From Schmidtea polychroa (taxonomy: Eukaryota), in NCBI GenBank assembly GCA_044892525.1, contig CM097885.1:265732001-265796000 (forward strand): a DNA stretch of 64,000 bases, in the 5' to 3' direction. The position numbers and the translations under genes are program-made. The notes below the pieces were generated by a model. It had not been told where the DNA came from and ran no database searches. It saw nothing but the letters and a program-made list of their open reading frames with translations. Positions 1,299 to 49,149 of the stretch are shown here, piece by piece (position 1 is the first letter of the stretch; each line of letters opens with the position of its first letter).

Positions 1299-1514
1299 TT
1301 ATCTCGTTGAGGCGAAGGAGATCTTAATGGTGATGGGGTGCCTGAAAAAAAAATTTCTGCTTATGTGGCCCATTTTCCTACATCTATAGCATTTCAAGTC
1401 ATTGTTAATTGACTTATTCTTTACAAACTTTCTTCTGGGGCTGAGGTCCCTTCCATATTTAAACCAGCATTGATTTGGATAGTGTCCCACTTTCTTGCAG
1501 TGATCGCATACTAT
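1299..1514 (-). pseudogene. gag: gag zinc-knuckle segment; continuation of the gag at 23986-24753
   Basis: CDHCKKVGHYPNQC (CCHC) plus a degenerate CYRCRKMGHISRN. The apparent N-terminal half of ORF 1299-1655 is AT-rich LTR sequence inserted at 1515. Confidence 0.85.
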
Positions 1515-1871
1515 TGTTGGGCTAAACGGAAAAATAATTGTTGGTGGCTGTGAACTGAGTAAACGAGGAAAAACAGAAAAAGAAAAAACAAATAAAATAA
1601 TTAAGTTAGAAATAAATAAATTAAGGACGCAATAATAACAAAATTTAGGAAACAATAAAAATAAAACCCAAACAAAATAAGGAAAAACGTAACTAAAAGT
1701 ACAAAATTAAGTAAAATTTGAAGAAAAACTAGAAATAGGCCGTCACACACCCAAAGTCAACAAAAATAGGCGAAATAACGCAAAAATACAAGAAAAATAA
1801 TAGAATAATAAAATAACTAAATAAAACAAAATAATACATAAGAAAACAATAGAAAATAAGTCAGATAACTA

Positions 1872-2594
1872 CAGGAATACCTAGCATAGTACGGTTTGAA
1901 ATTTTCAAAATATGATTGTTTTTAAAATGATTAAATAAAATTTTCGAAATTTAAAAAAGTTTTTTTAAATTAATTATTTATCGAAAATATAGGTGAAGCA
2001 TGGAATGAAGTGACACTAAAAATATGAGAACCGTTTAGAAAAATCTAATTCCGCATTGTGCTAACGATTTTGTTGGTTTTGAGAAACATTTTTTTGAAGT
2101 TACTAATGAAATTGTGGAGTTTGGACATCAGCTTGGATTTGAAGATCTAGATTCCGTAAACTTTATGGAATGTATTCAATCTAGTGCGAAAGATCTCGAT
2201 AATGAAACACTTATGAAAATAGACGAACAGTGAGCTTATGAAGAGCTGGACGAAGACTCAGAAAACGATGAAATTGTTGAACCCCCTGCTAAAGATTTAA
2301 CTGCTGAACAGCTCAAAGAAATCATTGAAATGATCGAAAAAGTTTCGGATCATATAATGGAAGTTGATTATAATATAGAACGCCGCATTACAATTCGTCG
2401 AACAATAGCCAACACACTTGAATATCAGAATAATAAAAATATTTGTTTACTAGATTATAATCACGATTTTTAAATTTCTTAATAGGGGTACTAAGCCGTA
2501 AATTTATTAGCGCCAGAATGCCTCGAATAGTCCGGTTTCAAATAGTACGGCTAAATTCAAAAACCGATTAACCGTATTGTTCGAGGTATTCCTG
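1872..2594 (+). mobile_element. Internally deleted Tc1/mariner-superfamily (pogo/Tigger-like) DNA transposon
   Basis: Imperfect ~25-bp TIRs starting CAGGAATACCT, flanked by TA on both sides. Stop-riddled remnant resembling a Tigger transposase C-terminus (NIGEAWNEV...EIVEFGHQLGFEDLD). Confidence 0.8.
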
Positions 2595-2954
2595 TACTTC
2601 AAAATCAAATTAAGGTAAGAATTTTGTAATATGAAACATAACTACTTCAAAATCAAATTAAGGTACTAACTACTACCAAACTAAGCAACCACTTTAGAAA
2701 GCACTAATTCAAAGGGAAATCTGCTAGGAAGCTTGTATAATCGGTAAATCTGAACTGCACAAGGCTTATAGAATCATTCCACATTATTACGATTGCAAGT
2801 ATCATTCAAGGATTCGTGGATCTTATCGAAGCTCTACTTATTGAATTGTTAAACGAGAAGAGAGTATATAACTCCGAATTTACTCAGTTCACTAGCAACT
2901 AATCGTTGAATTTCCAAGTAATTTAGTTGAACTTCATTTATGAAATTTATTATA

Positions 2955-4415
2955 AGTAGGTAGTTATGTGCACTCTAGATCCATGTGCANNNNNNNNNNN
3001 NNNNNNNNNNNNNNNNNNNNNNNNNNNNNNNNNNNNNNNNNNNNNNNNNNNNNNNNNNNNNNNNNNNNNNNNNNNNNNNNNNNNNNNNNNNNNNNNNNNN
3101 NNNNNNNNNNNNNNNNNNNNNNNNNNNNNNNNNNNNNNNNNNNNNNNNNNNNNNNNNNNNNNNNNNGTAATAATTTTATTTTTTGTTTTAATCATCGATT
3201 ACGTAATAATTTAAAATTTTTTTAAAACATCGATTACGTCATTGATTTTAATTTTTTATAAGAATTTTTTATGTCATTATACTTGAAATTTAATTCTCTG
3301 TTAAATGAGACTATGATGTAATCAAAATTCTGAAATTTCATTTTTAGTACACGATTTTTAAATTTACACATCTTTTTAAACAAATTGAGATATTTTCACT
3401 CAAACAATATATAGATAGAATTTTAATCTCTATAAAATGACATCAATATTTACTTCAAATTCATAATCATAACACCTTAAACAATGTATTTTTCAGCCAA
3501 CTTTTACATACACACATATTTTCAACTTTTAAAAAATACAAATTAATCATCTATACTTAACTCATAGTAAATAATTATATTAAAAGACATATTAAAAGAT
3601 GTATTAAAAACTAAACATTTATTAAAATCCCAGAGAAATTCGAGCACTATCTAATTTCCAAATCGGTGATATGACATCTTTCTCATCCATTTTATATCCC
3701 TGTATTGAAATATTTACAAACCAGCTTTCACCATCTTTATATTCAATTTCTTCAAAGGCATCATGAAAACGAGAATTTCGATTGTTGATGATTATATTTC
3801 CATTGCAACTTAGATTCTTATTGATTTTCCCCAACACTTTATTTACTGCAACAACATCTTCTTTTGTTATATGAGCAATGAAACTTGAATATTGCGACTT
3901 GATCAATTTGACTGCATTTGAGAATTTATATGGAATTTCGTCTACCAAGAAATATATCTTATGGTTATGATACATTTGTACTGGTTTCACATCATTCTTG
4001 GCATGCTTCGTCTCAGTTATTTTCTTAATTGGGCTTGTTTCTTTCAATAAATTAGAAAATGTTTTCTCACCAAAAACGTTCTTCTTGGATTGCATTTTTT
4101 AAAAATAATGACTATGATGTCATTTTATCTCTCTTTTATACTTGTGTATAACCAATCAAATGAATGCATTTGTATTGCAAACAACATGCATGTGTCATTG
4201 ACCTTCGTGTGTGACCTTTGTATGTGACCTTTACATTTGTGACCTTTGTATGTGAGTCATACATGGTTTGCATATGTATTGCAGATGTATTGCAAATTAG
4301 TTAATTAAAACGTGTACTAATTAGTGTGATATTAAAAATATTATACTAATACATGTAACATAAAAATACTATAACAACATAAAAATAGTGTACTATCACA
4401 AGTAACAATATAAAA
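2955..4415 (+). repeat. Left terminal inverted repeat (~1.45 kb; N gap 2990-3166)
   Basis: Reverse complement of 16567-18044. Carries the same 157-aa ORF and has ~19 extra nt near its inner end. Confidence 0.95.
3622..4095 (-). CDS. 157-aa TIR-encoded protein (copy 1); candidate OB-fold ssDNA-binding protein
   Basis: Translation identical to 16868-17341. The C-terminus GESWFVNISIQGYK...ISPIWKLDSARI recalls the last strands of T7 gp2.5/NCLDV-type SSBs. The function is inference. Confidence 0.8.
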   Translation of the reverse strand: MQSKKNVFGEKTFSNLLKETSPIKKITETKHAKNDVKPVQMYHNHKIYFLVDEIPYKFSNAVKLIKSQYSSFIAHITKEDVVAVNKVLGKINKNLSCNGNIIINNRNSRFHDAFEEIEYKDGESWFVNISIQGYKMDEKDVISPIWKLDSARISLGF

Positions 4416-4453
4416 ATTTTGTAACGATTAAAAATAGAATGAAAACAAATTTT

Positions 4454-7400
4454 TTATATCATAAAATTTATTAATTGACAACCATCATCATTTGGAAAAT
4501 GAGGATGATATTGCAAATCTTCATCTGGATCAACTATGGGCAGCAACATTTCTTCATCAGAATCATCAGCCATAACCATACCACCCCCCCTATAATGACC
4601 ATACGCATAACTTTTATTTTTAAGTACCCAATTGCGCTTATCGTCAGCATTAGTTAAAGCCCTCTTATTATTTTTAATACTGAAAAGTTGATGGTTTTTA
4701 CTCGTTATCCTAAATTGTGGTACTGTATAAATCTCATTATTATTATAACAATTCAGATACGACTGATGAGTTAGTCCAGTATCTTTCATTGTGACCCCCT
4801 TCGCTTTCATACATCCCTTACTACCCTTCATGCTATAACATTTTGGTCTTAAAAATATCCATTCATCATATCCAAGACCTTTGCTTTCATCTTTAAATTT
4901 CCCTATTACAGAGTCAAGGTTTTTTGAATATAATGAATGTGTTGGCTCGTAATTAGAGGTATCTAATAAATTATCCCTTATCATTGCGGGTAAAAGAGAA
5001 TTTAATTTGCAATTTTTAATTTCCAAAAAGAACGAATCTGTATCCCCAGCAACTATATTAATTTTACAATTAAATTCTATACGATATTTTTCTAAATCAA
5101 TGTACTGAAGTTGGTACATACGAAGTTTTGATAAATCCAAAACTGATTGACCAATATAACTTGGTCTATTTAAACATATTAAATCTTTTCTTAATAGAAC
5201 AGATATTAAGTCGTCATCGATTTTAGTAGTCCTTTTGAAATTAGGTTTAGAACAATATGTTAATACCTTTTGGGCTGAATTGCAAAGTCTTAAATTAATT
5301 CGTTTCTTTAGGTTTTCGACAGTCTTACCGTATAGACTGTTGTTTAATAGTTTAAAATAATTTTTATCTAATGTGTTTGTTGATGATGCCCTAAGTTGTG
5401 TGTTAGTATCTATATAATTTTTAAATATTGATGACTGTTCAAATTGTATAGCGCGATGAATTTTAGTGACCTTTACCCCAATATTTAGATAAAGCTGGAG
5501 AAGTCTCCAATGAACTACATAATTCTTTTTAGGATAGTGGGTAAGCATCAACTTCTCCACTTTGGATCCTGGTGCACAGATCTTTTCAGCTGCAACAGGG
5601 AAATCGTCAAGCTTATCATGAATCGATTCTGGAATTTCCAAATCGACTTCAACAGTATAACCGAATGTGAGTAATTCCAAGTCAACATTCATACAATCAT
5701 CCAAAATCTTATTTAATTTTATTTCATCGTTAATCCACTTAAAATTACCATCTGGTAGTTTCTGGCTAAGTGCCCAACCATATAGGTTGTTAATATCTAT
5801 ATAGAGCAACTCTGTGTTTTCATCTGATTTTACGTAATGTTTATTAACAAATGTTAATCCCCCTCGAATCCCACCCTCAAAGAAATTATAAATCTCCATG
5901 TCTTGGATCAACTCAATTGGATGATCTAAAGTCATGAGTGCAGAGTTCCATGACATACCGGGAATGCCTAAAAAGTTTAAGGGTTCCAATCTGTTATGAG
6001 CTATTGATTTTGCTCTAAACTGTTGGAAATAGTCCGCAAGTAAAAAGACATCTAATTTTAAATATATCATCATGTAATCCAAAAGTGAATTACAATTATG
6101 GTCATCCCAAATGCGCTGAGCCATATCATATTCTACTTCAGTAACACCATCCCAAATTGGAGGTAATTGGGGAGTTCCCTGAAGCACTTCTAAACTAGTT
6201 GCAAAATCATATGGGAATATGCCTTTACTATTAACAATTACTCCGTTAAATTCAGAATTAGTCAATGGAAATGTAGTTAATGTTTGTACAGCATTTTTTA
6301 AGGAATCGTTAATAAATTGACAAGAATCGATAAATTTTATAGTTAATCCATCAATTCTTGCATATAAACTTAAAAATTTTTCACTAGTTATAGGAATACA
6401 ATTAATATTCCATGATTTAAATTTACCTAAGCCAAATTTGAGAATATGATGGAGATCATATCCTCTCAAATTATGAAAAATAACTGGTAAAACCGGTCTA
6501 ATTCTTCGAGAAAGATTACAAGTTGAGCAAGCTGCACCTAAATATTTACCCGAAAAATGGTCATGATCTCTTACTGGATTTACTAAAGTTTTCTTACACA
6601 AATGACAATTTACAGCCGAAGAAAAGTTTATTTTGTCAATACTACTAAAAAACATCATTTTCCTATATCGTGTTTCAAAATATGGAGCCACTATTTGCTT
6701 ACCAATTTCTTCAAGTTCATGAAGAAACTGTTCAACACAATCCAATCCTATAAAACTTTTATAAAATTTATCCCCTGTAAAATTATTTATAAAAACAAAA
6801 CCAGCTGAGATTGGTAAATGTTTTTGATAGTATTTATTATCTTTAGGTAAAATTGCCTCAAAGTCGGCATAAATAACAAATGGAGGAGTGACAATCTTTG
6901 ACCAATTTGTAAAACTAAGATATTTATCTTCGGGTAATGTAAAGAGAGTGGTCCCTAACTGATTTTTATCACACAAACCCTTGTGTCTCATGAAAGAATT
7001 AGGATTTCGAAAACCATTTAAGCATCTCGAACACCATTTACTACAAATCCTAACAGCAGTTACACTAGAATCGTTACAATTCAAAAGTCTATCAAGATTA
7101 GTAACACCTATGTAATGATATGTGTCAAAATCTTCTAACAAAATTAAATTAATTGTTGTCCCCCCAATAACTTTAGATCGATAAATTATGTCAACATAAG
7201 GATGTTTCATAACTTCTTCAGTATTCTTAACATCATTTAATATATTTTCGTTATAAGTTAAAACATTTATCGATAAACCAGGGTTTTGGGATTCAAATTT
7301 AGAAATATTACAAAGGCGCATAGGGAGATCTGCAGGATCGAATTTTAATTCCGAAGTATTATAATTATATGGCTTAGATCTATTGGTACTAATACTATTA

Positions 7401-7932
7401 TATTTCAAAATAGATAAAATACTATATAGGAAGCATTCATCATTTGTATTTTTAACATTAACAGTACATTTTTTATTTAATAATGTTTCTGGTGTAGGAA
7501 TATATCCACGGCCAGTTAATCTGGATATTTGCGAATATTTTGTTATTATAAAACTAATATATTCAATTTTATGTATAACCCAGTTGCTTCCCTTTTCGTT
7601 AACTTTAATTATTTTTTCATTTAATAAATCAATACCATCTTCTAAGAAGGTATCACTCATGGGTCTAGCAGAATTTGAAATAACGAATGATTGAAATTCG
7701 TCATCTTTTACAAATTCCACTTTCAAACAAAATTGAATTTTTATTGAACCCATCTCGGATGAAACTTTATTTAATTCATTTATTAACTGAGTAGGGATCG
7801 AAACTGTTTTTAAATTTAAGGATGAAACATCCATTTTAACTTCTGCGTGTGTTTTATTTAAATCGAATATGGTTTCAGGTTCAAGTGAACCACCTTGTTG
7901 ATTAATAATGACTTCTGTAGAAGTTGATGTAA

Positions 7933-7995
<63 letters not shown>

Positions 7996-8413
7996 AAAGT
8001 GAATAAGAGTTAACTATCAAAGGCATGACCTCATCATCAGAGTCTGAAATAACGATAAGATCTTTTTTAACAAATTTAGAGGGTTTTAGATTAGGTAAAT
8101 TAATTTTTCTTTTATTATTTACATTAGGCTTATTATTATTATTATTAGTACTTGTAGTATCATTATTATGATTTATAGCGGGATTATAGGTATTGGAAAT
8201 ATTATTTTTTAATAAATTAATAAGGTCTTTTTTCTTTAAATTATACTGAGTTAAATGATCCCTATGTTGATGATAAAACTCCATGTATGTTACAGTCTCG
8301 GGGTTCATACAAACAGGGCAAATAAAAAAGATGGTATGATTATGGCTATGTTTGTAATATTTTTCCATTATGAAATCACAATCATCATGTAATGAACTAT
8401 TACAATAATTTTG
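4454..8413 (-). CDS. polB: Protein-primed family B DNA polymerase, main exon (start lies in or upstream of N gap 8414-8643)
   Basis: Exo motifs YADFE, HNLRGYD, DVFLLAD; pol motifs DINNLYG, KLLNNSLYGK, AGDTDS, KCY. Endonuclease VII-like CHLC...DHDH...CSTCN insert. N-terminal NDECFLYS...YHY (vOTU-like). Confidence 0.97.
7940..7995. repeat. (ATT)n microsatellite encoding poly-Asn in the PolB N-terminal region
   Basis: Directly visible; translates to a run of ~17 Asn. Confidence 0.9.
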
Positions 8414-8672
8414 NNNNNNNNNNNNNNNNNNNNNNNNNNNNNNNNNNNNNNNNNNNNNNNNNNNNNNNNNNNNNNNNNNNNNNNNNNNNNNNNNNNNNNN
8501 NNNNNNNNNNNNNNNNNNNNNNNNNNNNNNNNNNNNNNNNNNNNNNNNNNNNNNNNNNNNNNNNNNNNNNNNNNNNNNNNNNNNNNNNNNNNNNNNNNNN
8601 NNNNNNNNNNNNNNNNNNNNNNNNNNNNNNNNNNNNNNNNNNNATATTTTTATCAAAAAGGTAATTTTACTT

Positions 8673-8805
8673 AAATATATTTAACCTATTACATAATAGT
8701 TTAAACATACTTAATGCAAAATATATTTACCCTATTACGTAATAGTTTAAACATAATCAATACAAAATATATTTAACCTATTATATAATAGGTTAAATAT
8801 ATTTT
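8673..8805. repeat. Three 46-bp tandem units with palindromic cores; the third is a perfect 42-bp palindrome (8764-8805)
   Basis: Unit starts at 8673, 8719 and 8765. Core CTATTACGTAATAG at 8732-8745. Confidence 0.9.
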
Positions 8806-9004
8806 CAATCAAAATAAATTATTGATAAAAATAAATTTAACTTGTTACATAATATTTCATTATTATTATTATTATTCAAAGTACTATATTATAATTATTG
8901 TATTTAAAGTATTAATTATTATTAAAATAAAAACATTAATAAATCTTTTAATAAAACCTTATAAAAATTCATTAAAAATCTTTAAATAAAAATGAAAATC
9001 TTAC

Positions 9005-9360
9005 ATGTAACTTTTCTTTTTGATATTTTGCAATCATTTTTTCCATATGCAGTACTGCGCGCAATCAAATTGTTACCATTATTATTGTTATTTGTACTTG
9101 ACTCGTTCATATTTCGTCCATTTATAATGCATCCATTCATGTTGTTTATAATAAAATCTAAAAAGAATAAATAATTATAAATTTAATAATAATAACGAAA
9201 TACCATTTGGCATGTTTTCACTGTTATTGTTAGATCTTTTGTTGAAATTACGATTAAGACCTATAAATTATATCAATAATAATGACAAATAAATAAATAA
9301 ATAAATCTTACCATTCTTGACACTGTTTCCGCTTTGGCTTCCTTGATTATTTCTTGACAT
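9005..9360 (-). CDS. Three predicted coding exons (9360-9312, 9260-9204, 9157-9005), probably the 5' exons of polB
   Basis: ATG exon, then 57-nt and 153-nt exons, all bounded by phase-1 GT-AG introns (51 and 46 nt, then a GTAAGA donor at 9004). The joined frame is stop-free: MSRNNQGSQSGNSVKNG-LNRNFNKRSNNNSENMPND-FIINNMNG...KRKVT. Confidence 0.7.
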
Positions 9361-9680
9361 TTTGTTGAGTTTAAAATTTTAGGTATATAAAAAAGTGATG
9401 GTATATTTTTAAACATTGCTTTATATATCATAAATTGTGTAATATGTATTCACCCAATAGAAATTGAGAGTATTACATGCACACGCACTATGAAATATAA
9501 TTTACACACAATGTGAAATACTTTTCACACATTAGGAAGCAAAACTTACACACATTACAAAATAAAAATTTAACACAAACTAAGAGAACATGATTAATCA
9601 TGCATTTAAACTGCAATCTTAATGCATATGAGTAATAATAACAAAATTAATAATAATATAATTTTTAATCAAAAACTTTA

Positions 9681-10100
9681 TTAATTTTTTAAATAATCTA
9701 ACACAGCAATTAAACAATTTTTGTAAGCACAATTAGAATGATCACGGTAAGGACACAAGATATTATCAGGAAAATATTCTGATAATTGGATTGAATATTT
9801 TATTAATCTTAAATTTGGGAAATAATTTTTCAAAACTGTAAGTTTATCTTGATCAGTGACATAGAAAATTCCACTTGTATCTTCTACATCTCTCAATATA
9901 CATGTTGGACAAAACGAATCTTCACCTTCATACCATTCCAATCGATCTGAATTTTCACGTCCAGCCCAAAATGGTAAATCATTAAATAACCAATACTTTG
10001 GGCGTAAAATATTATTTACATTCATAATACATAATTCTTTAATAATTATTCCACCAGCATAATCATTATAACCTACAAAGTCAATAAAATAACAAGACAT
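9681..10100 (-). CDS. 139-aa protein; candidate degenerate DnaQ/DEDD-fold (Maelstrom-like) protein
   Basis: Clean ORF with ATG and stop. N-terminal IDFVGY...IIIKELCI resembles Exo I, and the C-terminus has CPYRDHSNCAYKN. The fold call is inference. Confidence 0.7.
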   Translation of the reverse strand: MSCYFIDFVGYNDYAGGIIIKELCIMNVNNILRPKYWLFNDLPFWAGRENSDRLEWYEGEDSFCPTCILRDVEDTSGIFYVTDQDKLTVLKNYFPNLRLIKYSIQLSEYFPDNILCPYRDHSNCAYKNCLIAVLDYLKN

Positions 10101-10132
10101 TTTTATTAATAAGATTTATTAAACTACATCGT

Positions 10133-10514
10133 TTATACATATAACATTGAATTTAGCCATGCAAGGCAATGTTGACCACATGTTTGAGTCATTGGATTTT
10201 GATAACGAATTTTATTATACAGAAGGGGTTTACCAACTGTTTGTAGTTTTGTTATCATTATATCTGGATAATAATATCCCATCGGATCAAAAACATGTAT
10301 TTTATCAGGTTTCACATATATTGCAATCCAATGTTCTCCTTCAAGATTTGATGATTGAGTATTGACGACTATAGCTTGGTTTGCGTTCAGATAGGGGATT
10401 TTATCTAATGGGAATACTCCAGTAAACTGATTCCCCAACAACATTTTTCCAATTCGATTAACCTGAATAGAACTAATCAAATAAAATTAATTATTAATTA
10501 AAAACTTACTCCAT
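10133..10514 (-). CDS. Adenain-like cysteine protease; predicted 5-nt first exon (10514-10510) and 37-nt intron (10509-10473)
   Basis: Catalytic set GEHW, FDPMG, YQ, CGQHC. The tracked ORF starts at TTG with a stop just upstream; splicing ATGGA|GTAAGT...TTAG|T gives MDSIQVNRIG in frame. Confidence 0.92.
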
Positions 10515-10579
10515 AATAAATTGTTTCCATTGTTTAATTCATTTATACTACGTTTAAACCAATACAGTTTGAAATACTT

Positions 10580-11803
10580 TCAAACCAATACTGATCGACT
10601 TGCAGTAATTTGTAATTCTCTTTCGAAAACTCCGTATACTATTACATAAACCGATTCCTCGAGTGATTTATTAAACTTTACACTCAATTTTAAATTTCCT
10701 TGTTGTGGTAATTGACTTTGATTCAAATCAAAATCTGGAGACAAAACAAATGTAAAGAATGGATATTTATCTTTAAAATCTTCAAGTGTAATCCCACAGT
10801 TCATGTTTTTATCCAAATACCCCAGATTTCTCACAATACTTTGCATATACGTTGTAGTATAATCATTTGTGTCAAAGTTTTGTGTATATGTTTCTCGATA
10901 GTCATTATTTTTGGCTAAAGTGATTGATGTAATATCCAAATGTTTAAAGATTGAGCTGGATTCCTTATATGTTCCCTTAAATTGAGATTCAGTTTGAAAT
11001 GCCACTAAAACGAAATTTGGTAATCTTTTGTCAATAAATAATTGTTCCTTGTAAAATGACGATGAACCTTTACTGATTGTAAAGTCGACAGTTTCTTTAC
11101 TTCTAATTGGATATATAGCATTTTTAGAATTTAACCCTATTTGATGCCCTGCTAAAACTGATGGTTCAACTCGAACTCTGCGAATCATTAATTTTGCTTC
11201 CAATACCTTTATCTTTGGTTCATCTGTTAGCGAATGTATACTGAATGATGATGGGTTTCTTTTCAGTGTTACATTAACATTAACTCCTGGAAGTAAATAT
11301 TTTGGTTGATCCATAAAATCTATTTGCAATGACGAACATAGGGAAACTAATTTAGAACCGGCAATTAATGCTGTTCTTTCCTTATCAGATGGAATGTAAC
11401 CCATAGGAGCCAGACAAATGTTTTTACTATCTCCATTATAATTTAAAATAGTTTCAATTAAAGCTTTTTGTGTATATCTTCCGTTTCCACCTTCAATCTT
11501 TTGACTATTGAGTCCAACAATAACATCACTAAAAAGTGTATGGAACAAGTAATTGTTAGCTTTTGCATCTGAAGTAACCGGTAATTCCTTTCCATTATTA
11601 TTTGTAACCTTTAATTTAATGTAGAGTAATGTATCATTCAAATCGAGATATTCAGTATGAGAACCAGTTATTTTGAATTCAATATCGCTTTTATTATCAA
11701 CAATTGAATTAAAGGGGAATACGTCTTCAAATGTCGCATATTCTATAACCGCCTGAGGAGTCGGTCGATCAAAAATACATAATTCAGTTTTTCCACAAAT
11801 CAT
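10580..11803 (-). CDS. Major capsid protein (double jelly-roll, Polinton PY type), 407 aa
   Basis: Polinton MCP N-terminal signature KTELCIFDRPTPQ...FP...IEFKI...YLDLNDTLLYIKLKV; size and position in the morphogenetic cluster. Confidence 0.92.
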   Translation of the reverse strand: MICGKTELCIFDRPTPQAVIEYATFEDVFPFNSIVDNKSDIEFKITGSHTEYLDLNDTLLYIKLKVTNNNGKELPVTSDAKANNYLFHTLFSDVIVGLNSQKIEGGNGRYTQKALIETILNYNGDSKNICLAPMGYIPSDKERTALIAGSKLVSLCSSLQIDFMDQPKYLLPGVNVNVTLKRNPSSFSIHSLTDEPKIKVLEAKLMIRRVRVEPSVLAGHQIGLNSKNAIYPIRSKETVDFTISKGSSSFYKEQLFIDKRLPNFVLVAFQTESQFKGTYKESSSIFKHLDITSITLAKNNDYRETYTQNFDTNDYTTTYMQSIVRNLGYLDKNMNCGITLEDFKDKYPFFTFVLSPDFDLNQSQLPQQGNLKLSVKFNKSLEESVYVIVYGVFERELQITASRSVLV

Positions 11804-12186
11804 TTTTCGAATATAGTTCCACGTCCTGTCATTCGTTTGTTTATATACCTTCGATGTTTTCTTCGCTTAGGCTGTGGTTCAGACTCTTCAGATTCTGATG
11901 CTTCATTTGATCCCATTACATTTGGTAATGAAGAAATCACATCTGGTAATGCCTCTTTGAATTCAGATATGGCATTGGATTTTAAAGATGGTAATATTTT
12001 TGCATTATTCATTATTACATCTTTAGCTGTTTTCATACCAAAATTTCCTATACGTTTAAGAATAGGAAGAGCAAACCGACCAATAGTTTTTAACCATCCG
12101 GATCCATATTGTTTGCCAACAAAATATGGTAATTCGCCACCAGTTTGACTATTGGCATAAAGAGAAACTATATCAGGATTAGACAT
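11800..12186 (-). CDS. Putative virion core/membrane-active protein (PZ-like), 128 aa
   Basis: QTGG, QYGSG and MTGRG glycine motifs, amphipathic GWLKTIGRFALPILKRIG, basic C-terminus; lies between the minor and major capsid genes. Confidence 0.75.
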   Translation of the reverse strand: MSNPDIVSLYANSQTGGELPYFVGKQYGSGWLKTIGRFALPILKRIGNFGMKTAKDVIMNNAKILPSLKSNAISEFKEALPDVISSLPNVMGSNEASESEESEPQPKRRKHRRYINKRMTGRGTIFEK

Positions 12187-13195
12187 CTTGTTTTCTAAAA
12201 TGTAAAGTTACGTGTGTTTTTGAATCGTTTGCAAATCGGATTAAATTTCCGCTATCATCGCGTATATTAATTTCTATATTGTTTATACATGTTCTCCCAA
12301 CTGGTAAATACATAGGATTTTCTATTTGTATTTGCACAACTTCATCTTGCTCATATTTCTTAATCCACACCGCTTTCAGAAGAGGTACCAGTGAATCACC
12401 AACATTTATCGGATCAATAATATCGCTATAGATGAACATTTGTTGATGATGATTAAATATTTTTCCTTTACGAACTCCACCAAATTGTTTGTCATTATAT
12501 AATTGTTTTTGTAATCCAAATGTGTTGACCAAGTTTTTATCAAATATAACTTCTTTAATGTTTTCACCGAGACTGAATTTGAAGACATTTTCATTCAGTT
12601 CAACAGACTTGAAAATATGGGGGCAATTACTTGTTAAATAGTTGGTTAAATCTTCAAGCTTCTTTATGTATAAATCATCAGTAAATGTGAAAACTGAATC
12701 TTGTAAACAATTGTACGTTAACTTCATTCTAATTACATTATTCATAATGCCATCAACATACGGCGGAATTACAATTTGAAATGTATCAGTGTGACTTATA
12801 ATTGTTGGTTCAGGAACTCCTAATCTTTTTACGCTTGCATCTTCAAATGTTATCTCGAATGGATGGTAATCGCAACAAATATTTAAAACTCCCTTGGTAA
12901 TATACATGTAACAATCATTATTTAATTCTTTTATTGTCGTTTCATCATCTTCGGGTTCAATAACATAAAAGCTGCTAACTGATTTCGATGCAATTTCTTT
13001 ATATTCAATCTTAGAATTACTGTAAAATGGAAATGTATTGTACACAAATGTGTAATCAAGCAAAGCAACTTCCCACATGTCATGCAGGTAAATGGGATTT
13101 TGTAACTCAACGATAAATTTACTAGCCTCATTATTCGGATGAATTAATGGACAGCTATTGCTTGGTAAAATAGTGAAAAAATTGTTTCTATTCAT
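12179..13195 (-). CDS. Minor capsid/penton protein (single jelly-roll, PX type), 338 aa
   Basis: FFTILPSNS...NNEASKF.V.L.NPI.L...WEVAL N-terminus and IYSDII...GDS..PLL...IEINIRD..G...LHFR C-terminus. Confidence 0.92.
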   Translation of the reverse strand: MNRNNFFTILPSNSCPLIHPNNEASKFIVELQNPIYLHDMWEVALLDYTFVYNTFPFYSNSKIEYKEIASKSVSSFYVIEPEDDETTIKELNNDCYMYITKGVLNICCDYHPFEITFEDASVKRLGVPEPTIISHTDTFQIVIPPYVDGIMNNVIRMKLTYNCLQDSVFTFTDDLYIKKLEDLTNYLTSNCPHIFKSVELNENVFKFSLGENIKEVIFDKNLVNTFGLQKQLYNDKQFGGVRKGKIFNHHQQMFIYSDIIDPINVGDSLVPLLKAVWIKKYEQDEVVQIQIENPMYLPVGRTCINNIEINIRDDSGNLIRFANDSKTHVTLHFRKQDV

Positions 13196-14211
13196 TCAAT
13201 TTGAGATGCTGATATCCAAGTTGGGTTTTGATATCCATGCCATTTGACGTAATATTGTTTATCCTTACCTTTATATTTTGATTTAAGAATTTTTTCAATT
13301 CTAAAGACAGATGGTGTCGGAATAACTTGCAGTTCCTGTTCGTAAAATTTACCCTGGATTTCATTATTATCAATATCTTTAATAACATACATAACGGGAC
13401 TCTGTTTCGTATTAATCTTCGATATTTGAAAGACTTCGTCACTCCAGTTGTTGTCAAAATTTTTAATGAATGGTGAAGCCGATATTTTACTTATTCTAAC
13501 ATGATCACCAACTTTATATTTAGGTTTCTTAATTTTTGTTACATCTTGTTGTGATAATAATATTTTCATACTATTTTTAGATGTTACATCAATCGGTCTC
13601 ATACCCTTTAGACCTCCATGTTCGGAATGATTGTAACTATGAATTATTTTCGGTAAAACATTTATCCAAGTTTTGTTACCTTGATGTACAAAATATTTTT
13701 TCAATCGATCTCTTAATGTTCTATTAAACCTTTCCACATGAGCAGCTTTGAATTGTGAAAAAACAGAGTAATGATTTATTCCCTTTAGATTTTCTTTAAC
13801 TTTGCTATTATAAAATTCTTTACCCAAATCAGTTTGTAAATTATCTGGTTTACCATTTTTAAACATTGTTTTTATTGCAACAGCCATTTCACTAGCAGAT
13901 TTGGTTTTCAATGGTATAGCTCGAGCAAATCTACTAAAGACATCAATACATGTCAAAATATATTTGTAACCCTTATTAATTTTAGAAAATGGAATCATTT
14001 CCATTAAGTCCATTTGCCATAAATCATTAATACCATATGTTTTATATGCTCTTGTGGGAAACCGTTTCAACATTGGCTTGTTTAAATTGTATGCCAGTTG
14101 ACTCGACAACCATTTTTGAGTCTCCTTTTTTGATTTGGGTACTTTTTTCTTTAACTTTTCGACTCCACCGAAACCGGCTGGATCTTTTGGGTTTGTCCAT
14201 ATCTTCTCCAT
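13192..14211 (-). CDS. int: Retrovirus-like DDE integrase with C-terminal chromodomain, 339 aa
   Basis: WQMDL (D), LQTDLGKEF (D), VERFNRTLR (E); chromodomain FRIEKIL...YYVKWHGY..PTWI. Confidence 0.97.
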   Translation of the reverse strand: MEKIWTNPKDPAGFGGVEKLKKKVPKSKKETQKWLSSQLAYNLNKPMLKRFPTRAYKTYGINDLWQMDLMEMIPFSKINKGYKYILTCIDVFSRFARAIPLKTKSASEMAVAIKTMFKNGKPDNLQTDLGKEFYNSKVKENLKGINHYSVFSQFKAAHVERFNRTLRDRLKKYFVHQGNKTWINVLPKIIHSYNHSEHGGLKGMRPIDVTSKNSMKILLSQQDVTKIKKPKYKVGDHVRISKISASPFIKNFDNNWSDEVFQISKINTKQSPVMYVIKDIDNNEIQGKFYEQELQVIPTPSVFRIEKILKSKYKGKDKQYYVKWHGYQNPTWISASQIE

Positions 14212-14309
14212 TACAACACGATGATTTAAAATTTAGAATAAGGTTTGGTAAATGTCCCATAGGTAATTGACCCATTGTTTATGATGATGATATTAAAATA
14301 ATTCAACGT

Positions 14310-14642
14310 TTATGAAGGCTCACCTAATAAACCAGATCCACCTAATAAAGATAATGCGATTGGTATCAAAGCTGATATAAACCCCCCTTTCTGTTTGTAT
14401 ATAATTTTTCGCATTATACGTTTATTTTTTGTATTTACTAACGATAAAAGTGATTTTTTATGGTTTTGCAATACAAGTTTTTTCGCTTTACTAATGTCAA
14501 CATTGCCACGCACAACATTAACAATAATTTCAAGCAAATCGTCCACAACAAATTGTGGGAATGATTGTAAAATACTTGTTCTTTTCATGAGTGGTGCTTT
14601 TATCAATGCATTAAAATATGGTATACTACGTTGTAATTTCAT
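14310..14642 (-). CDS. Conserved Polinton small core protein (PW-like), 110 aa
   Basis: LLEIIVNVVRGNV...LQNHKKSL...QKGGFISALIP pattern with a QxGG cleavage-type motif before a hydrophobic tail. Confidence 0.75.
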   Translation of the reverse strand: MKLQRSIPYFNALIKAPLMKRTSILQSFPQFVVDDLLEIIVNVVRGNVDISKAKKLVLQNHKKSLLSLVNTKNKRIMRKIIYKQKGGFISALIPIALSLLGGSGLLGEPS

Positions 14643-14675
14643 TATTGAAATTTATTTTTTATCGTTTAACTTTGT

Positions 14676-14846
14676 TTATAATTTAATCCATTTTTTAGGT
14701 GTTTTGATTGATCTTTTCTTCAACGTTTTCTTTACAGATTTCTTTACTATCTTTTTTATAGATTTCTTTACATGTTTCTTTACACGTTTCTTCTTCACTT
14801 TGACTAATTGATTATCATGTTTAATTAAAACTTTCTTGAACCCCAT
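14676..14846 (-). CDS. 56-aa Lys-rich (H1/protamine-like) protein, below the ORF-track cutoff
   Basis: MGFKKVLIKHDNQLVKVKKKRVKKHVKKSIKKIVKKSVKKTLKKRSIKTPKKWIKL*. It fills the gap between the ATPase and PW-like genes on the cassette strand. Confidence 0.75.
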   Translation of the reverse strand: MGFKKVLIKHDNQLVKVKKKRVKKHVKKSIKKIVKKSVKKTLKKRSIKTPKKWIKL

Positions 14847-14870
14847 TTTTTATTATAATAGATTCATAAT

Positions 14871-15494
14871 TTAATTTTGTTTATAAACTGTTACACCATC
14901 TTTATTAAAAATATCTGTCCTAATACGTACATCATCCATGCATTGCTGAGTAAAATCAAAGAATAAATATCCATGGGGTATTTTGGTTGCATCTTGAAAT
15001 GATTCAATTAGAAAGTTACGATTGTTTGGATATGCTTGTCTTGCAATGAAATCAATAACAGTTGCATCCCTCGGATTTTTGAAAATAACAAGATATTGAA
15101 CATTCAAGTTCCGAGTTCGATGACTCCCACCCTGATGAAACAGATTTTGTGTTATAAAAATAACTGTTACACCATGATGTCGAGATATTTTTGTAAATAA
15201 ATTATTAAAATCTTTTTCTTTGTTAGCTTCTTGATATAAATCATCAATAATAATTACATCACCCTGTTGTAATCTAGATGACCAGTTTTTATCAAATCCT
15301 TTTATTATTGTCATTTTTAATTTACAGAATTGTTCTTGCGTCAAACCATGTTCGTCATCAGCACCCCTATGCCAATATATTTTATTGAATTTTGACTTGA
15401 ACATTTTTGATTGTAATAATTTACAAACAAATAAAGTTTTACCACTACCGCTTGGACCTACAATTTGATAAACAGCATCATTTCTTAATTCCAT
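14871..15494 (-). CDS. A32/FtsK-HerA-family genome packaging ATPase, 207 aa
   Basis: Walker A GPSGSGKT, Walker B IIIDD, SRHHGVTVIFITQ, R..LN.QY. Confidence 0.96.
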   Translation of the reverse strand: MELRNDAVYQIVGPSGSGKTLFVCKLLQSKMFKSKFNKIYWHRGADDEHGLTQEQFCKLKMTIIKGFDKNWSSRLQQGDVIIIDDLYQEANKEKDFNNLFTKISRHHGVTVIFITQNLFHQGGSHRTRNLNVQYLVIFKNPRDATVIDFIARQAYPNNRNFLIESFQDATKIPHGYLFFDFTQQCMDDVRIRTDIFNKDGVTVYKQN

Positions 15495-15579
15495 TTTAAA
15501 AAATTAGTTATATATATTAATATTGTTTATATTTGTTTTAATTCATCAGTTTACTTGATGAAAAATTATTTGAAAAAAT

Positions 15580-16044
15580 ATGATTAGTAATATAAATTAT
15601 AAAGGTAGATTTGATGTATCTCATATGGAATTTCCAAAAGGTAAACCACAACAAATTGTTGACAGAAGCGGTAAACATTCAATAATATTTTTCAAGTCAG
15701 GTAAATGTCGAATAATGGGATGTAAAAAATCGATCAAAGTTGAAGATTTAAAATATGAAATCAAGGATTTACAAATTCAATCGATTACAGTTACTGCTGA
15801 TATTGAATCAAATGTTATTTTAAATGATTTATCAAAGTATATGAAATGTATTTACGAACCAGAAATATTTCCGGCATTAAGATATATAAAATACAATCCA
15901 ATGTGTGTTAACATATTCAATAGTGGTAAAGTAGTTATACTCGGTATAAAGACATTGGATTATCATTTACTTGTTTATAAAATTATTAAAGATATTAAAT
16001 CAGTAATTGATGACATGGAATTTTTAAAATTTTTCCTAAACTAA
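15580..16044 (+). CDS. TBP: TATA-binding protein (TBP)-like protein, 154 aa
   Basis: Two TBP repeats: IIFFKSGKCRIMGCK, and IQSITVT...YEPEIFPALRY...VNIFNSGKVVILGIK versus canonical IQNIVGS...YEPELFPGLIY...LIFVSGKVVLTGAK. Confidence 0.9.
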   Translation: MISNINYKGRFDVSHMEFPKGKPQQIVDRSGKHSIIFFKSGKCRIMGCKKSIKVEDLKYEIKDLQIQSITVTADIESNVILNDLSKYMKCIYEPEIFPALRYIKYNPMCVNIFNSGKVVILGIKTLDYHLLVYKIIKDIKSVIDDMEFLKFFLN

Positions 16045-16153
16045 AGTTGCAATCGTCCATGCATGAATCCAATTGGTTGATGGTGTGTATCGAAATAAGT
16101 ATATATATATATATACAATAACACTTTAATCATTTATTAAGTACTAGTTGAGA

Positions 16154-16531
16154 ATGTCAAATTTAACTGTAAATGGTATATTTTGATTATTGCTTTTTAT
16201 ATTTATAATTTTAAATGTTTTAGAAAAAATGATACAGATTCTGATTGGGAAAATGGGGGAATTATATCCGAATATTTTAAAGGATCTAATCTATTGGGCA
16301 CCAGAGATTATTCCATTCAGAATATGGATGTCTACCGGAATAGATTTGAATGTGGTTTTGTTTGATCACTTGAGGACGTTAGAAGACGATCTTGGCCCTG
16401 TTGACAGCAGCAAGCCATCAGTATGCCCATACAAATGCGAAGGATGTATTGATAGAGAGAAGAAGTATAATATATGGATATTAAGGAAAGAGTTGAGAAA
16501 AGCTCACTTTTCATTAATTGTAGATCACTAA
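16154..16531 (+). CDS. ~109-aa unknown protein, predicted two exons (16154-16175, 16224-16531)
   Basis: ATG...AAT G|GTATAT-(48 nt)-TTTTAG|AA AAA ATG gives MSNLTVNEKMIQ in the frame of tracked ORF 16190-16531; contains CPYKCEGC. Confidence 0.65.
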
Positions 16532-16703
16532 TAAATGTTTAGTTATTATAATACAGTGTTTTCTAATTTTATATTGTTACTTGTGATAGTACACTAATTT
16601 TATGTTACATGTATTAGTATAATATTTTTAATATCACACTAATTAGTACACGTTTTAATTAACTAATTTGCAATACATCTGCAATACATATGCAAACCAT
16701 GTA

Positions 16704-16856
16704 TGACTCACATACAAAGGTCACAAATGTAAAGGTCACATACAAAGGTCACACACGAAGGTCAATGACACATGCATGTTGTTTGCAATACAAATGCATT
16801 CATTTGATTGGTTATACACAAGTATAAAAGAGAGATAAAATGACATCATAGTCATT
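16704..16856 (+). promoter_or_regulatory. Predicted Pol II promoter of the TIR gene (mirrored in the left TIR on the minus strand)
   Basis: TGACTCA 16704-16710; AGGTCA x4 (16718, 16733, 16746, 16759); ATTGG 16807-16811; TATAAAAG 16823-16830; TCATT with its A at 16854, 31 nt from the TATA start; ATG at 16868. Confidence 0.65.
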
Positions 16857-16867
16857 ATTTTTAAAAA

Positions 16868-17341
16868 ATGCAATCCAAGAAGAACGTTTTTGGTGAGAAA
16901 ACATTTTCTAATTTATTGAAAGAAACAAGCCCAATTAAGAAAATAACTGAGACGAAGCATGCCAAGAATGATGTGAAACCAGTACAAATGTATCATAACC
17001 ATAAGATATATTTCTTGGTAGACGAAATTCCATATAAATTCTCAAATGCAGTCAAATTGATCAAGTCGCAATATTCAAGTTTCATTGCTCATATAACAAA
17101 AGAAGATGTTGTTGCAGTAAATAAAGTGTTGGGGAAAATCAATAAGAATCTAAGTTGCAATGGAAATATAATCATCAACAATCGAAATTCTCGTTTTCAT
17201 GATGCCTTTGAAGAAATTGAATATAAAGATGGTGAAAGCTGGTTTGTAAATATTTCAATACAGGGATATAAAATGGATGAGAAAGATGTCATATCACCGA
17301 TTTGGAAATTAGATAGTGCTCGAATTTCTCTGGGATTTTAA
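16868..17341 (+). CDS. 157-aa TIR-encoded protein (copy 2)
   Basis: Translation identical to 3622-4095. Confidence 0.8.
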   Translation: MQSKKNVFGEKTFSNLLKETSPIKKITETKHAKNDVKPVQMYHNHKIYFLVDEIPYKFSNAVKLIKSQYSSFIAHITKEDVVAVNKVLGKINKNLSCNGNIIINNRNSRFHDAFEEIEYKDGESWFVNISIQGYKMDEKDVISPIWKLDSARISLGF

Positions 17342-19871
17342 TAAATGTTTAGTTTTTAATACATCTTTTAATATGTCTTTTAATATAATTATTTACTATG
17401 AGTTAAGTATAGATGATTAATTTGTATTTTTTAAAAGTTGAAAATATGTGTGTATGTAAAAGTTGGCTGAAAAATACATTGTTTAAGGTGTTATGATTAT
17501 GAATTTGAAGTAAATATTGATGTCATTTTATAGAGATTAAAATTCTATCTATATATTGTTTGAGTGAAAATATCTCAATTTGTTTAAAAAGATGTGTAAA
17601 TTTAAAAATCGTGTACTAAAAATGAAATTTCAGAATTTTGATTACATCATAGTCTCATTTAACAGAGAATTAAATTTCAAGTATAATGACATAAAAAATT
17701 CTTATAAAAAATTAAAATCAATGACGTAATCGATGTTTTAAAAAAATTTTAAATTATTACGTAATCGATGATTAAAACAAAAAATAAAATTATTACGTAA
17801 TCGATAATTAAAACAAAAATTTAAATTTAAAAAAAAAATANNNNNNNNNNNNNNNNNNNNNNNNNNNNNNNNNNNNNNNNNNNNNNNNNNNNNNNNNNNN
17901 NNNNNNNNNNNNNNNNNNNNNNNNNNNNNNNNNNNNNNNNNNNNNNNNNNNNNNNNNNNNNNNNNNNNNNNNNNNNNNNNNNNNNNNNNNNNNNNNNNNN
18001 NNNNNNNNNTGCACATGGATCTAGAGTGCACATAACTACCTACTATTATATATTCATGCATTGCTAATAATATTTAGAATTTGTGAAAAATGTTATAATG
18101 AAAATGTTTTTTTATTAACAACCTTGCCTTGGCGACGATGCCGTCTGGAAACCCCGAGTGTGATGGGTATGAAAAATATCAAATTTTACAATTATGATAT
18201 GAATTCCAACTATGCCATGACTTCGAAATGCCAGATTTATGCAGTGAGGGAGACGATATGAATTGCGTGCTCAGAGTAGTCACTTAAAGATTACTGTAGA
18301 GACATCAGCTATGGCATCACACTCGGATTTCAAAGGGCATGGTCGCCGGGTAAATTTATTTCATTTATTGTTTAATCATTAAAAGTAGACAATTTATAAC
18401 TACATTGAACATTCTGTAACAATATTTATGTTTTCATAACATTCATTTGATAATACTGTTTCGATTTTCACATTGCTTTATTATTATTGATAGTACACTA
18501 TGCGGTGTACTATGTCTATCAGGACGGTCTAGAGAACAGTCGGTAGGGATACCGGTCGTATCTGGATGGTCCTGGTGAGCGGAAAAGCCACGACTGTATA
18601 ATCCATCGAGTGTAATGGCAAGTGTTTTCATCGAGGAGCGATAGAAGTCGTTTTTCGCGAAAGATTTTGTAAATCCAAACGTCTTCAAATCTCATAGGAT
18701 TCCAGATTTTCTTACTAGACAAATTCCAAGTGATCTAGGAAAATTCCGTTCGATAAATTTGTTTCCGGGGCAGTCGTGGAATTCACCTTCATCGAATTAT
18801 AGAAAATCATCCATCTTTACTTCTTTGATCAGACGATCATTTTCTAATCGACTCGGAGAATCTGTATAATTTACGACCTAAATATTCCCAATGTTTAGTA
18901 ACAGTATTGTTTATAGCGATAGCCCAAATTCGATGTAGATTACGATCTGTAGGCAATAGCATCTCTGAATTCGCAAAGCATCGTCAGCGATTCAGGCACG
19001 ATCGACAACGATTGAATTTCGTCGATAAACAACCAGCTAGTAGAATTCCACTGCACGATTGTAATGAGATTTTCACTAAACAAAGAAGAAGATAATATAA
19101 ACAAATTAGAGCCAACGATCAATAGAATCGATTAAATCCGTCAGACTTGTTTATCCAACAGTATATGTCAATGTAAGCTCTCGTAGTAGACTGGAATTAA
19201 GAGAATCTCCTGGCAAAATGCAAATATTTACACGTCGCAGAATGTTAAGGCTCGGAGATGAATTTACCTAAATCAACTACACATTGACAAATTGAAACGC
19301 TTAACATAAATAATGAAAATTGACGACGAATAATATATCTACTATTGAAATAATTCAACTTAGAATCTCACATGAAAAATTTAGAATTAGTTCTTATTAT
19401 TTAAGTCTAAATATTTCAAAATCTAGAATTGGTTATTATTATTCAAGTACATTCAATACATAAAAACAATTAAAAATCGATTCGTCTAATAAATTAACTA
19501 ATAATGTAGATTTCTAAAGAAAATTTAGGCAAATAATGCAATTGATCAAATTTCACCCTAGTCGTAATCCCAGTGCTATTACGATAATGATTATGATTCC
19601 GAAAATTAAAAGGTTACTGTATGAGGGAAGGAATGCCTCTAAAGTTGAAATTTATACTAGCGGTCAGTGATCGGTCTTATCTACCATAATACGACGATTC
19701 ATTTTCTCTAACTACGTCCTTTTCTATAAATGTGTGAACCCAATCTGCCGCCGAAGGGACTCCAATCCTGTTTCTCTTGCGCAGATAAAAATTCCGATAT
19801 AAAAAAACTCCAAGAACACAATGGCACGCTGAAGAAGCGAATTGAGCATTACGAATGCACATGGTTCTTTC

Positions 19872-37686: not shown

Positions 37687-39210
37687 TAGAATATGATGTA
37701 AAGTAAAGTTTTTATTAATTCCATGTTGTAGTATAGGGTACTTCCAATTTTCAATATTTTTTTTCAATGCTTCACTACCGAAGTTTTGTCAAAAATGTTT
37801 TCTAGACATATATATGATACATTTATTACGATTTAAATGAAAAATCCATTTAATAGTAAAACATTATTCATCTCTTGATATTTTTCCCTATGTATTCATT
37901 AGAAAACCATTCATTGTAAACATTTTTCAAACGATATTACAGCAGGAGTTTTCAATAACTTTGTGAAAGTTAAATTCTTCATGAGCTGCTATTCAAGAAG
38001 AACAACAACTCATGATTTATGCCTTTTAATCTTAAGTGTCAATTGTATTACATATTTAATTTTTCGGAATTGTCTCTCAATTTCGATGAATGATAATATG
38101 GGCTTATATAATTCATTTCCTTATTGTGATCTTCTGAAAAATTTCTGATTGATTTGAATGAAAATGCCTTGCCTTTGCTATGATTAACCATCATTGTGGC
38201 TACAAATGTTATTATTTAGTTTTTATAATTATTCAAACCATTCTATTTTCATCTTGCGATTTACCTGTATCTTGGGTCATGAATTTACGGTGTTGATCTT
38301 CATAACCCTCAGAACTTATTGCTGATTGCAAAAGCGACAGAAATCCACATAGATTGTTTCAAATAATTTGTAATAAACTTATTTATATAATTTTTTTCTT
38401 TAGAGACTGTTATTAATATCAACAAAGTATTAAAAGAAATCTTTGTATATAAAAGTTATTTCATACCGACATTATTAGTACCGACGTTGCAGAGTTTTCT
38501 TTAATATTCCTTAATGCATTTATATCGGTTTTCATCTGAAATACAAACTTTAATATTATCCATCACTACGACTCTATTTATGTATTTTAATAATGTTTAA
38601 CTTAAACTATTACTGTATTTCCTCTTTAACCTTTTCATTTCTTTGCTATGATTATTATGTTTTTACTGTATTTCCCTATTTCAACGGCTACAAATGACTT
38701 ATCCATTCTAACAATTCAGGAGCAATGACTTTCTTAGTTTTCATCTTAATGTAATGAATATCTCTGTATAAGCATTTAACATATAAATATTCCATAAAAT
38801 GATTCGTATAATATAAAAAGCAACTCTTTGTGTTATATAATATCCTAATTTGTGTTTATTCAGGATTCGAAATACATTTCCGATAACCCTTTATCCTTTC
38901 TTTCGAAAGAGCAAATCTTTGACGCTATAGACACCTTCATCTGTTTCCAATATTAATGAGTAAATAAAATCTGGAAATTTCAATAATTGTGTAGATGTTA
39001 GTTCTAATATTTAATTTTGAAATGAAATCTTTCAAAGTCTTTCCAAACGACCTTCTATGTTTTTTTCTATACAATGTTTCTCAGAATTTTAATAATTCAG
39101 AGAGATGCATTATTACTACCTAACAGCAACACCTACCACCTGAAGTACAGTATGAATGTAACTGAAATATGATTTAATTACATTAAAATTATTTATTTAT
39201 TTCATTTTAG

Positions 39211-49145: not shown

Positions 49146-49149
49146 ATTA

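Follow-up and report, generated by a model that had tools for sequence, protein, structure and literature searches.

The 64,000-nt stretch of the Schmidtea polychroa genome analysed here (contig CM097885.1 of assembly GCA_044892525.1, positions 265,732,001 to 265,796,000; hereafter the window) contains a Polinton/Maverick element of 15,090 bp. It occupies positions 2955–18044 of the window and lies between two copies of ATTATA, the target site duplication (TSD). The outermost 35 readable bases are the same at both ends of the element and begin AGTAGGTAG. Inside the terminal runs of N, a further 1198 bases are identical between the two terminal inverted repeats (TIRs), so that their alignment has no substitution in 1,233 readable bases (95% upper bound, ~0.24%). 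The TIRs differ by indels only. The left TIR has 19 extra bases near its inner end, and the right TIR has one more 36-bp terminal repeat unit by the arithmetic of the N runs (177 + 36 = 169 + 44). Because the N runs and the readable extra bases sum to one 36-bp unit, the N runs act as stretches of true length. An inverted identity that is perfect over 1.2 kb and exactly bordered by a 6-bp direct match far exceeds chance expectation. An earlier note on this DNA, made from the letters alone, had described a recent integration with a perfect TSD, matching termini and a single gap of N. The TSD, the termini and the recent date agree with the present alignment; the runs of N are three (2990–3166, 8414–8643 and 17841–18009). 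The target site around the duplicated ATTATA is loosely palindromic (2938–2954 and 18045–18058).

By every feature that can be tested in the sequence, the element is a Polinton/Maverick. Together with its length, it has TIRs of 1461 and 1478 bp and an exact 6-bp TSD. It encodes an rve integrase, an A32/FtsK-type ATPase, an adenain-like protease, a major capsid protein (MCP) with a predicted double jelly roll, and a family B DNA polymerase of the protein-primed type with vOTU, exonuclease and palm motifs. Lengths of 13–25 kb, TIRs of 100–1500 bp and TSDs of 5–8 bp, usually 6 bp, are given for Polintons/Mavericks in the text of 10.1101/2023.08.22.554363. In the text of PMC8502044, the Beta class is defined by a protein-primed polymerase with an OTU domain (OTU-pPolB) without a match to PF03175. 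Since the polymerase of this element has no PF03175 match at E 0.1, it is assigned by that definition to group 1 (Beta-type, adintovirus). It is probable (roughly 0.7) that the element was inserted recently and is a full-length copy from a multi-copy group 1, Beta-type Polinton/Maverick family in an AT-rich animal genome.

Group 1 Polintons/Mavericks, or Beta adintoviruses (class Polintoviricetes), share with the element the size range, the TIRs, the TSD, the pPolB with vOTU, the rve integrase, adenain, the A32 ATPase, the double-jelly-roll MCP and a candidate penton. Unlike them, the element has its own TATA-binding protein (TBP), a (T/C)ATAAAC promoter box, a T7 gp2.5-type single-stranded DNA-binding protein (SSB) gene duplicated in the TIRs, and spliceosomal mini-introns. 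Taken together, these predicted components exceed what Polintons usually carry. Many animals are known to have young, full-length Polintons, so that an intact copy is in itself no novelty; for nematodes, both full-length copies and recent mobility have been described (text of 10.1101/2023.08.22.554363). The annotated coding sequence amounts to 11,551 of the 15,090 bases of the element, and the features are listed in Table 1.

Table 1. Features of the Polinton/Maverick element in window coordinates. Boxes are (T/C)ATAAAC unless written out, with distances relative to the start of the gene; counts out of 80 refer to the best 80 of 100 confirmed loci with relatives of the TBP-like protein.
Feature	Position	Strand	Remarks
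Left TSD	2949–2954	+	6 bp, ATTATA
Left TIR	2955–4415	.	1461 bp; 36-bp tandem array near end; N run 2990–3166
TIR gene, left copy, 157 aa	3622–4095	-	T7 gp2.5/Enc34-type OB-fold ssDNA-binding protein (predicted fold)
Polymerase, main exon	4454–8413	-	motifs; weak endonuclease VII matches; no PF03175 match
Unreadable stretch, 230 N	8414–8643	.	probably contains splice acceptor of main polymerase exon
46-bp tandem array of AT-rich palindromic units	8673–8804	.	ends in near-perfect 40-bp palindrome; inferred third polymerase intron
Three candidate polymerase 5' exons	9312–9360, 9204–9260, 9005–9157 (9005–9360)	-	inferred from sequence
ORF139, conserved Cys-rich protein	9681–10100	-	DEDD-like first motif in relatives; box at -37
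Adenain-type maturation protease, 114 aa if intron 10473–10509 is spliced	10133–10514	-	PF00770 above cut-off; TATAAAT at -33
MCP, double jelly roll, 407 aa	10580–11803	-	predicted fold; box at -42
Putative core protein, 128 aa	11800–12186	-	basic tail, GG motifs; kept in place in 6/80 loci
Putative minor capsid protein (mCP, penton), 338 aa	12179–13195	-	57 relatives; position
rve integrase with C-terminal chromodomain, 339 aa	13192–14211	-	PF00665 1.3e-10, PF00385 8.4e-6
MG..CC gene, 77 aa	14042–14275	-	in a different frame from the integrase, whose start it overlaps; CATAAAC at -39
ORF110, putative core protein	14310–14642	-	PF05829 E 0.084, below cut-off; box at -38
Lys-rich ORF, 56 aa	14676–14846	-	box at -39
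A32/FtsK-type packaging ATPase, 207 aa	14871–15494	-	PF04665 above cut-off; box at -37
Short TBP-like protein, 154 aa	15580–16044	+	PF00352 2.7e-15; without box
ORF109	16154–16531	+	candidate 48-nt intron; no relative in 80 loci
Right TIR	16567–18044	.	1478 bp; N run 17841–18009
TIR gene, right copy	16868–17341	+	same protein, 157/157 aa identical
Right TSD	18045–18050	+	6 bp, ATTATA

The order and orientation of the genes are as the earlier note had them, with two amendments: one gene (14042–14275) had been overlooked, and the protease and probably the polymerase begin in short upstream exons. All open reading frames (ORFs) named in that note are open in the readable sequence, free of stops and frameshifts, and the proteins of the two TIRs are identical, as it had claimed. 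Its complete virion module is also seen in the predictions. The model of the MCP, folded with nine relatives, has a pTM of 0.82. Its fold matches the capsid protein of PBCV-1 (Z 25.3; root-mean-square deviation (rmsd) 3.3; 342 aligned residues), the faustovirus MCP (Z 24.4) and the mavirus MCP (Z 20.4), and the top 15 structural rows are all double-jelly-roll capsid or scaffold proteins. The protease, the ATPase and the integrase were found by their families and motifs. The mCP is putative: its label is based on position, the 57 relatives and an Atlas lead (0.98 to unnamed Preplasmiviricota clusters, with a recognition value below threshold), and it has no match among PDB sequences. Its place and its conservation would suit the single-jelly-roll minor capsid protein expected of a Polinton. 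The C-terminus of ORF110 weakly resembles adenovirus pX (PF05829, E 0.084). The morphogenesis set is kept in order in relatives at 25–75% identity. To judge from the readable bases, this is a real, young, frame-intact Polinton with the full virion gene set.

Two small genes accompany this set. The product of the MG..CC gene starts with MG and contains a Cys-Cys pair, and it may be lipid-anchored. The gene precedes the integrase gene in 8 of the 19 relatives examined, each time with its own box; all eight are among the closer relatives, and the 11 others are mostly distant. At its start, a 15-bp tandem duplication (14247–14275) generates two in-frame MG starts. ORF139 has no Pfam, PHROG or PDB match. 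A D-x-E first acidic motif is present in most of 12 relatives and is changed in the family of this element. The label "DnaQ-like", given earlier to ORF139, is not confirmed by any family or structure match. PDB sequence searches for the polymerase, MCP, mCP and ORF139 returned nothing useful, and those of NCBIfam and PHROGs yielded no more than weak matches to endonuclease VII and ATPase.

In the polymerase, all ten motifs sought were found, including the Cys and His of vOTU. The role of vOTU in such polymerases is treated in PMC11071308. The polymerase is 34–52% identical to the polymerases of seven related loci, and neither Pfam nor NCBIfam nor the PDB sequences gave a match to a polymerase. 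Its endonuclease VII matches (Pfam and NCBIfam/PHROGs searches) are weak. An HNH/endonuclease VII-like insertion in the polymerase may be shared with the pPolB2 Polintons of nematodes and oomycetes; in contrast to this element, TBP and TATA are not mentioned for them in the main text of 10.1101/2023.08.22.554363. An (AAT)n run at 7939–7994 is translated into a poly-Asn tract in the N-terminal linker of the polymerase.

Several genes of the element probably contain very short introns, all of which are predicted, being read from the sequence. The protease gene has a 37-nt GT..AG intron at 10473–10509, after the first five coding bases. Among the five loci compared, the two close relatives, L004 (37 nt) and L012 (39 nt), have an intron at the same place, and the protease genes of L026, L027 and L036 start without it. 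The candidate leader introns of the polymerase gene are 51 and 46 nt long, and all three donors are in phase 1. The polymerase remnant at 58620 opens with a phase-1 AG, immediately ahead of the residues that come after the N run in the polymerase of the element, and the polymerase gene of L004 has a phase-1 intron in its N-terminal region. Based on these two observations, the acceptor of the main polymerase exon most likely lies within the unreadable 230 bases, and the 5' part of the gene is probably spliced across them. ORF109 contains a candidate 48-nt intron at 16176–16223. A strict scan of the element for AT-rich introns of 34–55 nt with a consensus donor returned two sites, both among the candidates listed here. 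If the predicted mini-introns are spliced, annotation of such elements by ORFs alone would truncate the protease and the polymerase. The palindromic array at 8673–8804 has a folding z of -5.2, and none of 200 shuffles was equally stable; it might serve as an internal origin, form a hairpin RNA or represent a small element inserted there.

The gene duplicated in the TIRs is predicted to encode a protein with an oligonucleotide/oligosaccharide-binding (OB) fold. Its model has a pLDDT of 88, and the four best folds are DUF2815 (Z 7.3), the Enc34 SSB (7.2), CP312R of African swine fever virus (7.0) and T7 gp2.5 (6.6), at rmsd 2.9–4.3 over 102–126 residues. The four share with the TIR protein an OB fold with the same long insertions, whereas identity to it is only 9–12%, and Z scores of 6.6–7.3 are in a range possible from a common arrangement alone. 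The scores are moderate, but the matches form one coherent family, with which the Atlas lead (PF10991 at 0.89) agrees, and by this model the protein is of the gp2.5/Enc34 type. It may serve as the ssDNA-binding protein for strand-displacement replication. The full HMMER search returned 45 relatives, and a word-based protein search none among 19 candidates. In 20 of the 80 loci, relatives of this gene adjoin the TBP gene.

Each TIR has four AGGTCA words, three of them as AAAGGTCA, spaced by 13–15 bases (4199–4247 and 16716–16764). They are presumably nuclear-receptor half-sites. The cluster precedes the SSB gene by ~100–150 bases and is followed by a CCAAT-type word and TATAAAA. It was rejected as a general feature of SSB genes: a comparable count is seen in one of 20 related loci (five words in L015), and the other 19 have 0–2. 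The SSB homologues of AT-rich relatives (L007, L008, L009, L015, L017, L019, L022 and others) have an apparent short GT..AG intron just before the conserved domain, which is absent from the SSB gene of this element.

The TBP-like protein matches 35 TBP chains in the PDB (best 2.3e-15) and has 88 relatives at ~39–66% identity. Among the 80 loci, the TBP relative stands beside another gene of the element in 62 and beside a core Polinton gene in 45; among the 38 loci of at least 3 kb, the counts are 34 and 30, respectively. The second repeat of the protein is clear. The first is shortened but retains N4, F18, F38 and the SGK motif. In 43 TBP-like sequences, F38, F97, F113, E93, P94 and E95 are invariant or nearly so, and we take them to correspond to the DNA-intercalating Phe and the YEPE stirrup of TBP structures.

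The sequence TATAAAC is found at -37 to -42 before ORF139, MCP, ORF110, the Lys-rich ORF and ATPase. The chance of finding it before 5 of 13 genes in a 33-base band is ~4e-8 under a second-order model. If CATAAAC at the MG..CC gene and TATAAAT ahead of the spliced start of the protease are counted too, 7 of the 10 leftward genes from ATPase to ORF139 have a box at -33 to -42. The core, mCP, integrase, TBP, ORF109 and SSB genes and the polymerase leader have no box in this copy. In relatives, counting only genes whose match reached the N-terminus, (T/C)ATAAAC is seen at -28 to -60 before ATPase (27/29), ORF110 (9/9), ORF139 (11/14), MCP (5/7), mCP (4/8), integrase (5/15), protease (1/8), core (1/6) and TBP (0/60); these loci span 35–75% ATPase identity, and the counts are not independent, given the kinship among the loci and the samples shared by several of them. 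The reverse strand gave 1/156, and the background expectation is ~1.5% per gene. The box is real. By analogy with the TBP mimics of herpesviruses and poxviruses, the TBP of the element might read it.

Virus-coded TBP-like proteins acting with a virus-specific TATA variant before late genes are described for ORF24/BcRF1/UL87 of beta- and gamma-herpesviruses, the poxvirus intermediate factor, and the TBPs of nucleocytoplasmic large DNA viruses and mirusviruses (PMC7498053, PMC12529657, PMC12917281 and PMC10132985). Those viruses are large, and they have either multi-protein complexes or an RNA polymerase of their own, whereas the element has a single predicted protein of 154 aa in 15 kb. In PMC8502044, TBP is named a single time; the legend in question (Fig. 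5) concerns viruses that the paper treats under non-animal datasets. TBP and TATA do not occur in the main texts of PMC11071308, 10.1101/2024.03.25.586562 and 10.64898/2026.06.19.733378. A literature search, which most subscription papers and Repbase lay outside, found no paper on animal Polintons with a TBP, with a late box or with spliceosomal introns. Narrow pattern scans of a viral contig collection found no relative by TBP alignment, MCP alignment or ATPase. The element has the adenain protease and a pX-like core protein (weak match) in common with adenoviruses. Adenoviruses also have protein-primed replication, a spliced polymerase leader and an early-to-late programme, as in the biology proposed here. 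To our knowledge, they have neither an integrase nor a TBP, and their DNA-binding protein has a different fold.

All or part of the window is contained in 11 of the 22 listed public sequencing runs, from six studies, as assembled contigs. The contigs of four runs (X1, X6 and X8 among them) were compared over 1500–16560. All four have long contigs with 0–6 differences from this copy, indicating that close copies are common to several samples; in X1, contigs of 394–639 bases show 0–1 differences. The contigs vary at 463 places, as in a family of copies. At 10 or more of the 40 places listed out of these 463, every run that covers the place differs from this copy in almost its whole depth. Fourteen sites were classified, and four were dropped from the private count, since X1 matches the window at them in whole or in part. 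The private differences are at least 0.08% over ~11.9 kb, consistent with no substitution in 1,233 TIR bases, and the copy is young by its divergence. They may have arisen after insertion, reflect differences between strains or be errors of the assembly. A 791-base contig of X1 and a shorter one of X6 join 10065 to 14600 with an overlap of 4 bases at the joint. The derivative with this deletion lacks the protease, MCP, core, mCP and integrase genes and is likely a non-autonomous member of the family. None of the 24 listed of 1985 loose contig ends falls at the left junction, and the contigs, which are unsuited to showing such ends, gave no place at which many molecules start or stop. The summed contig depth over the element is above that of some places in the flank; the flank is repetitive, and the depth was not used as a copy number.

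Several facts weigh against an intact element with its own late switch. The start of the polymerase is unreadable and its splicing is predicted, and no joint with GT..AG ends is among the 15 listed of 213 contig joints. Of the at least 10 private differences, five are silent and five change residues (two in the polymerase and the others in the protease, MCP and mCP). ORF139 is ~12 residues shorter in a block kept by 12/12 relatives. The first repeat of the TBP is shortened, three genes of the cassette (core, mCP and integrase) have no box within 70 bases, and the box includes the ordinary TATAAA, which could be read by the host TBP. The words "apparently intact" of the earlier note are thus good for the reading frames, and not for the 230 unreadable bases at the 5' part of the polymerase, the five changed residues and the shortened ORF139. 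A lesion private to this copy was rejected as the origin of this shortening, since contigs of X1 and X8 cross the site without a matching insertion. One X8 contig has the candidate protease intron unspliced; X8, which may be an RNA run, covers flanking DNA too, and this was not taken as evidence on expression either way.

The perfection of the copy might have arisen in assembly, if many copies were collapsed or polished into one consensus, as the multi-copy nature of the family and the N runs at matching places in both ends would allow. This is very improbable, because the two TIRs differ by indels, the copy has letters that no compared run shows as the majority, and the unique flanks carry an exact TSD. 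A weightier alternative accepts the same element and takes this copy as already dead or silenced, its frames being open only from youth; a private change, damage hidden in the unreadable stretch or silencing by host small RNAs could be responsible. None of the five residue changes is within a listed catalytic motif (one is three residues before the His motif of vOTU), the readable sequence is free of stops and frameshifts, and the boxes and splice signals are intact. Yet those five changes, the 230 unreadable bases in the polymerase, the derivative without most virion genes, which is common in two runs, and the decay of all neighbouring elements speak for a dead copy, and we consider it quite conceivable, at somewhat less than even odds.

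The family could also spread only as an intracellular transposon, with capsid genes for an intracellular particle or left from a recent viral ancestor, and with no infectious virion. The host-style introns, which point to long residence in one host lineage, and the lack of a relative in the viral contig collection under narrow pattern scans would fit, as would the statement in the text of a 2026 preprint that Maverick-Polinton virions are unobserved (10.64898/2026.06.19.733378). Against it are the full morphogenesis set ordered in relatives, the conserved promoter box and the conserved small MG..CC protein, which is lipid-anchored in appearance. We entertain this explanation tentatively. As for the box, it might be a strong host-type TATA read by the host TBP; the TBP of the element would then not be an activator of late genes but act on host transcription factors, as a decoy or an inhibitor. 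The common TATA core is TATAAA, and a shortened first repeat would suit a decoy. This is unlikely, as the final C of the box does not vary, its CATAAAC variant, which makes a poor host TATA, occurs at an equal distance, the TBP and SSB genes have other TATA forms or none, and the presumed DNA-intercalating Phe and YEPE stirrup residues are invariant or nearly so in the 43 sequences.

For the preferred reading, a young full-length Polinton of a multi-copy family, a life cycle can be proposed from the known biology of Polintons and adenoviruses. The family has been mobile recently, and its gene content is suggestive of excision, replication and particle formation. The host RNA polymerase II and spliceosome would express the replication genes first, namely SSB, the spliced polymerase and TBP. 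The polymerase would start copying at the ends of the linear genome, primed by a terminal protein of its own, and SSB would coat the displaced strand. The TBP of the element would then help to activate the genes behind the (T/C)ATAAAC box, i.e., ATPase, core proteins, capsid and protease. Capsids would package the DNA, and the integrase would insert new copies with 6-bp duplications. It can be speculated further, as a doubtful proposal, that this animal Polinton lineage is a helper-independent virus, with its own early-to-late switch through one miniature TBP and (T/C)ATAAAC as a dedicated promoter, with the host spliceosome used for early genes and the protease, with particles still made in an invertebrate host, and with capsid-less derivatives riding along.

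The central question is whether Polintons are real viruses, and how their genes are timed without a helper giant virus. Many near-identical copies, an own TBP and a sharply placed box make both parts of it testable by observation. If the proposal is true, late transcripts should start ~25–30 bases behind the box, and the system would be among the smallest self-coded late-transcription systems known.

The elements around the Polinton are broken, as had been noted earlier. At least three hAT-type transposases (21206–22648, 35318–37275 and 43945–45822) are broken up by stops or spread over several frames, and so is a gag remnant (29340–30385). Two decayed polymerase remnants belong to related Polintons: 48336–49159 on the plus strand, with ~75% amino acid identity, and 57062–58620 on the minus strand, with ~43%. 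Upstream of the first remnant, AT-rich DNA at 47501–47702 contains two related 49-bp units, 153 bases apart. An exact 82-bp tandem duplication (49963–50122) is near a fourth N run (50392–50537). Exon pieces of a host gene encoding a laminin G domain are found amid the repeats at 39173–39728.

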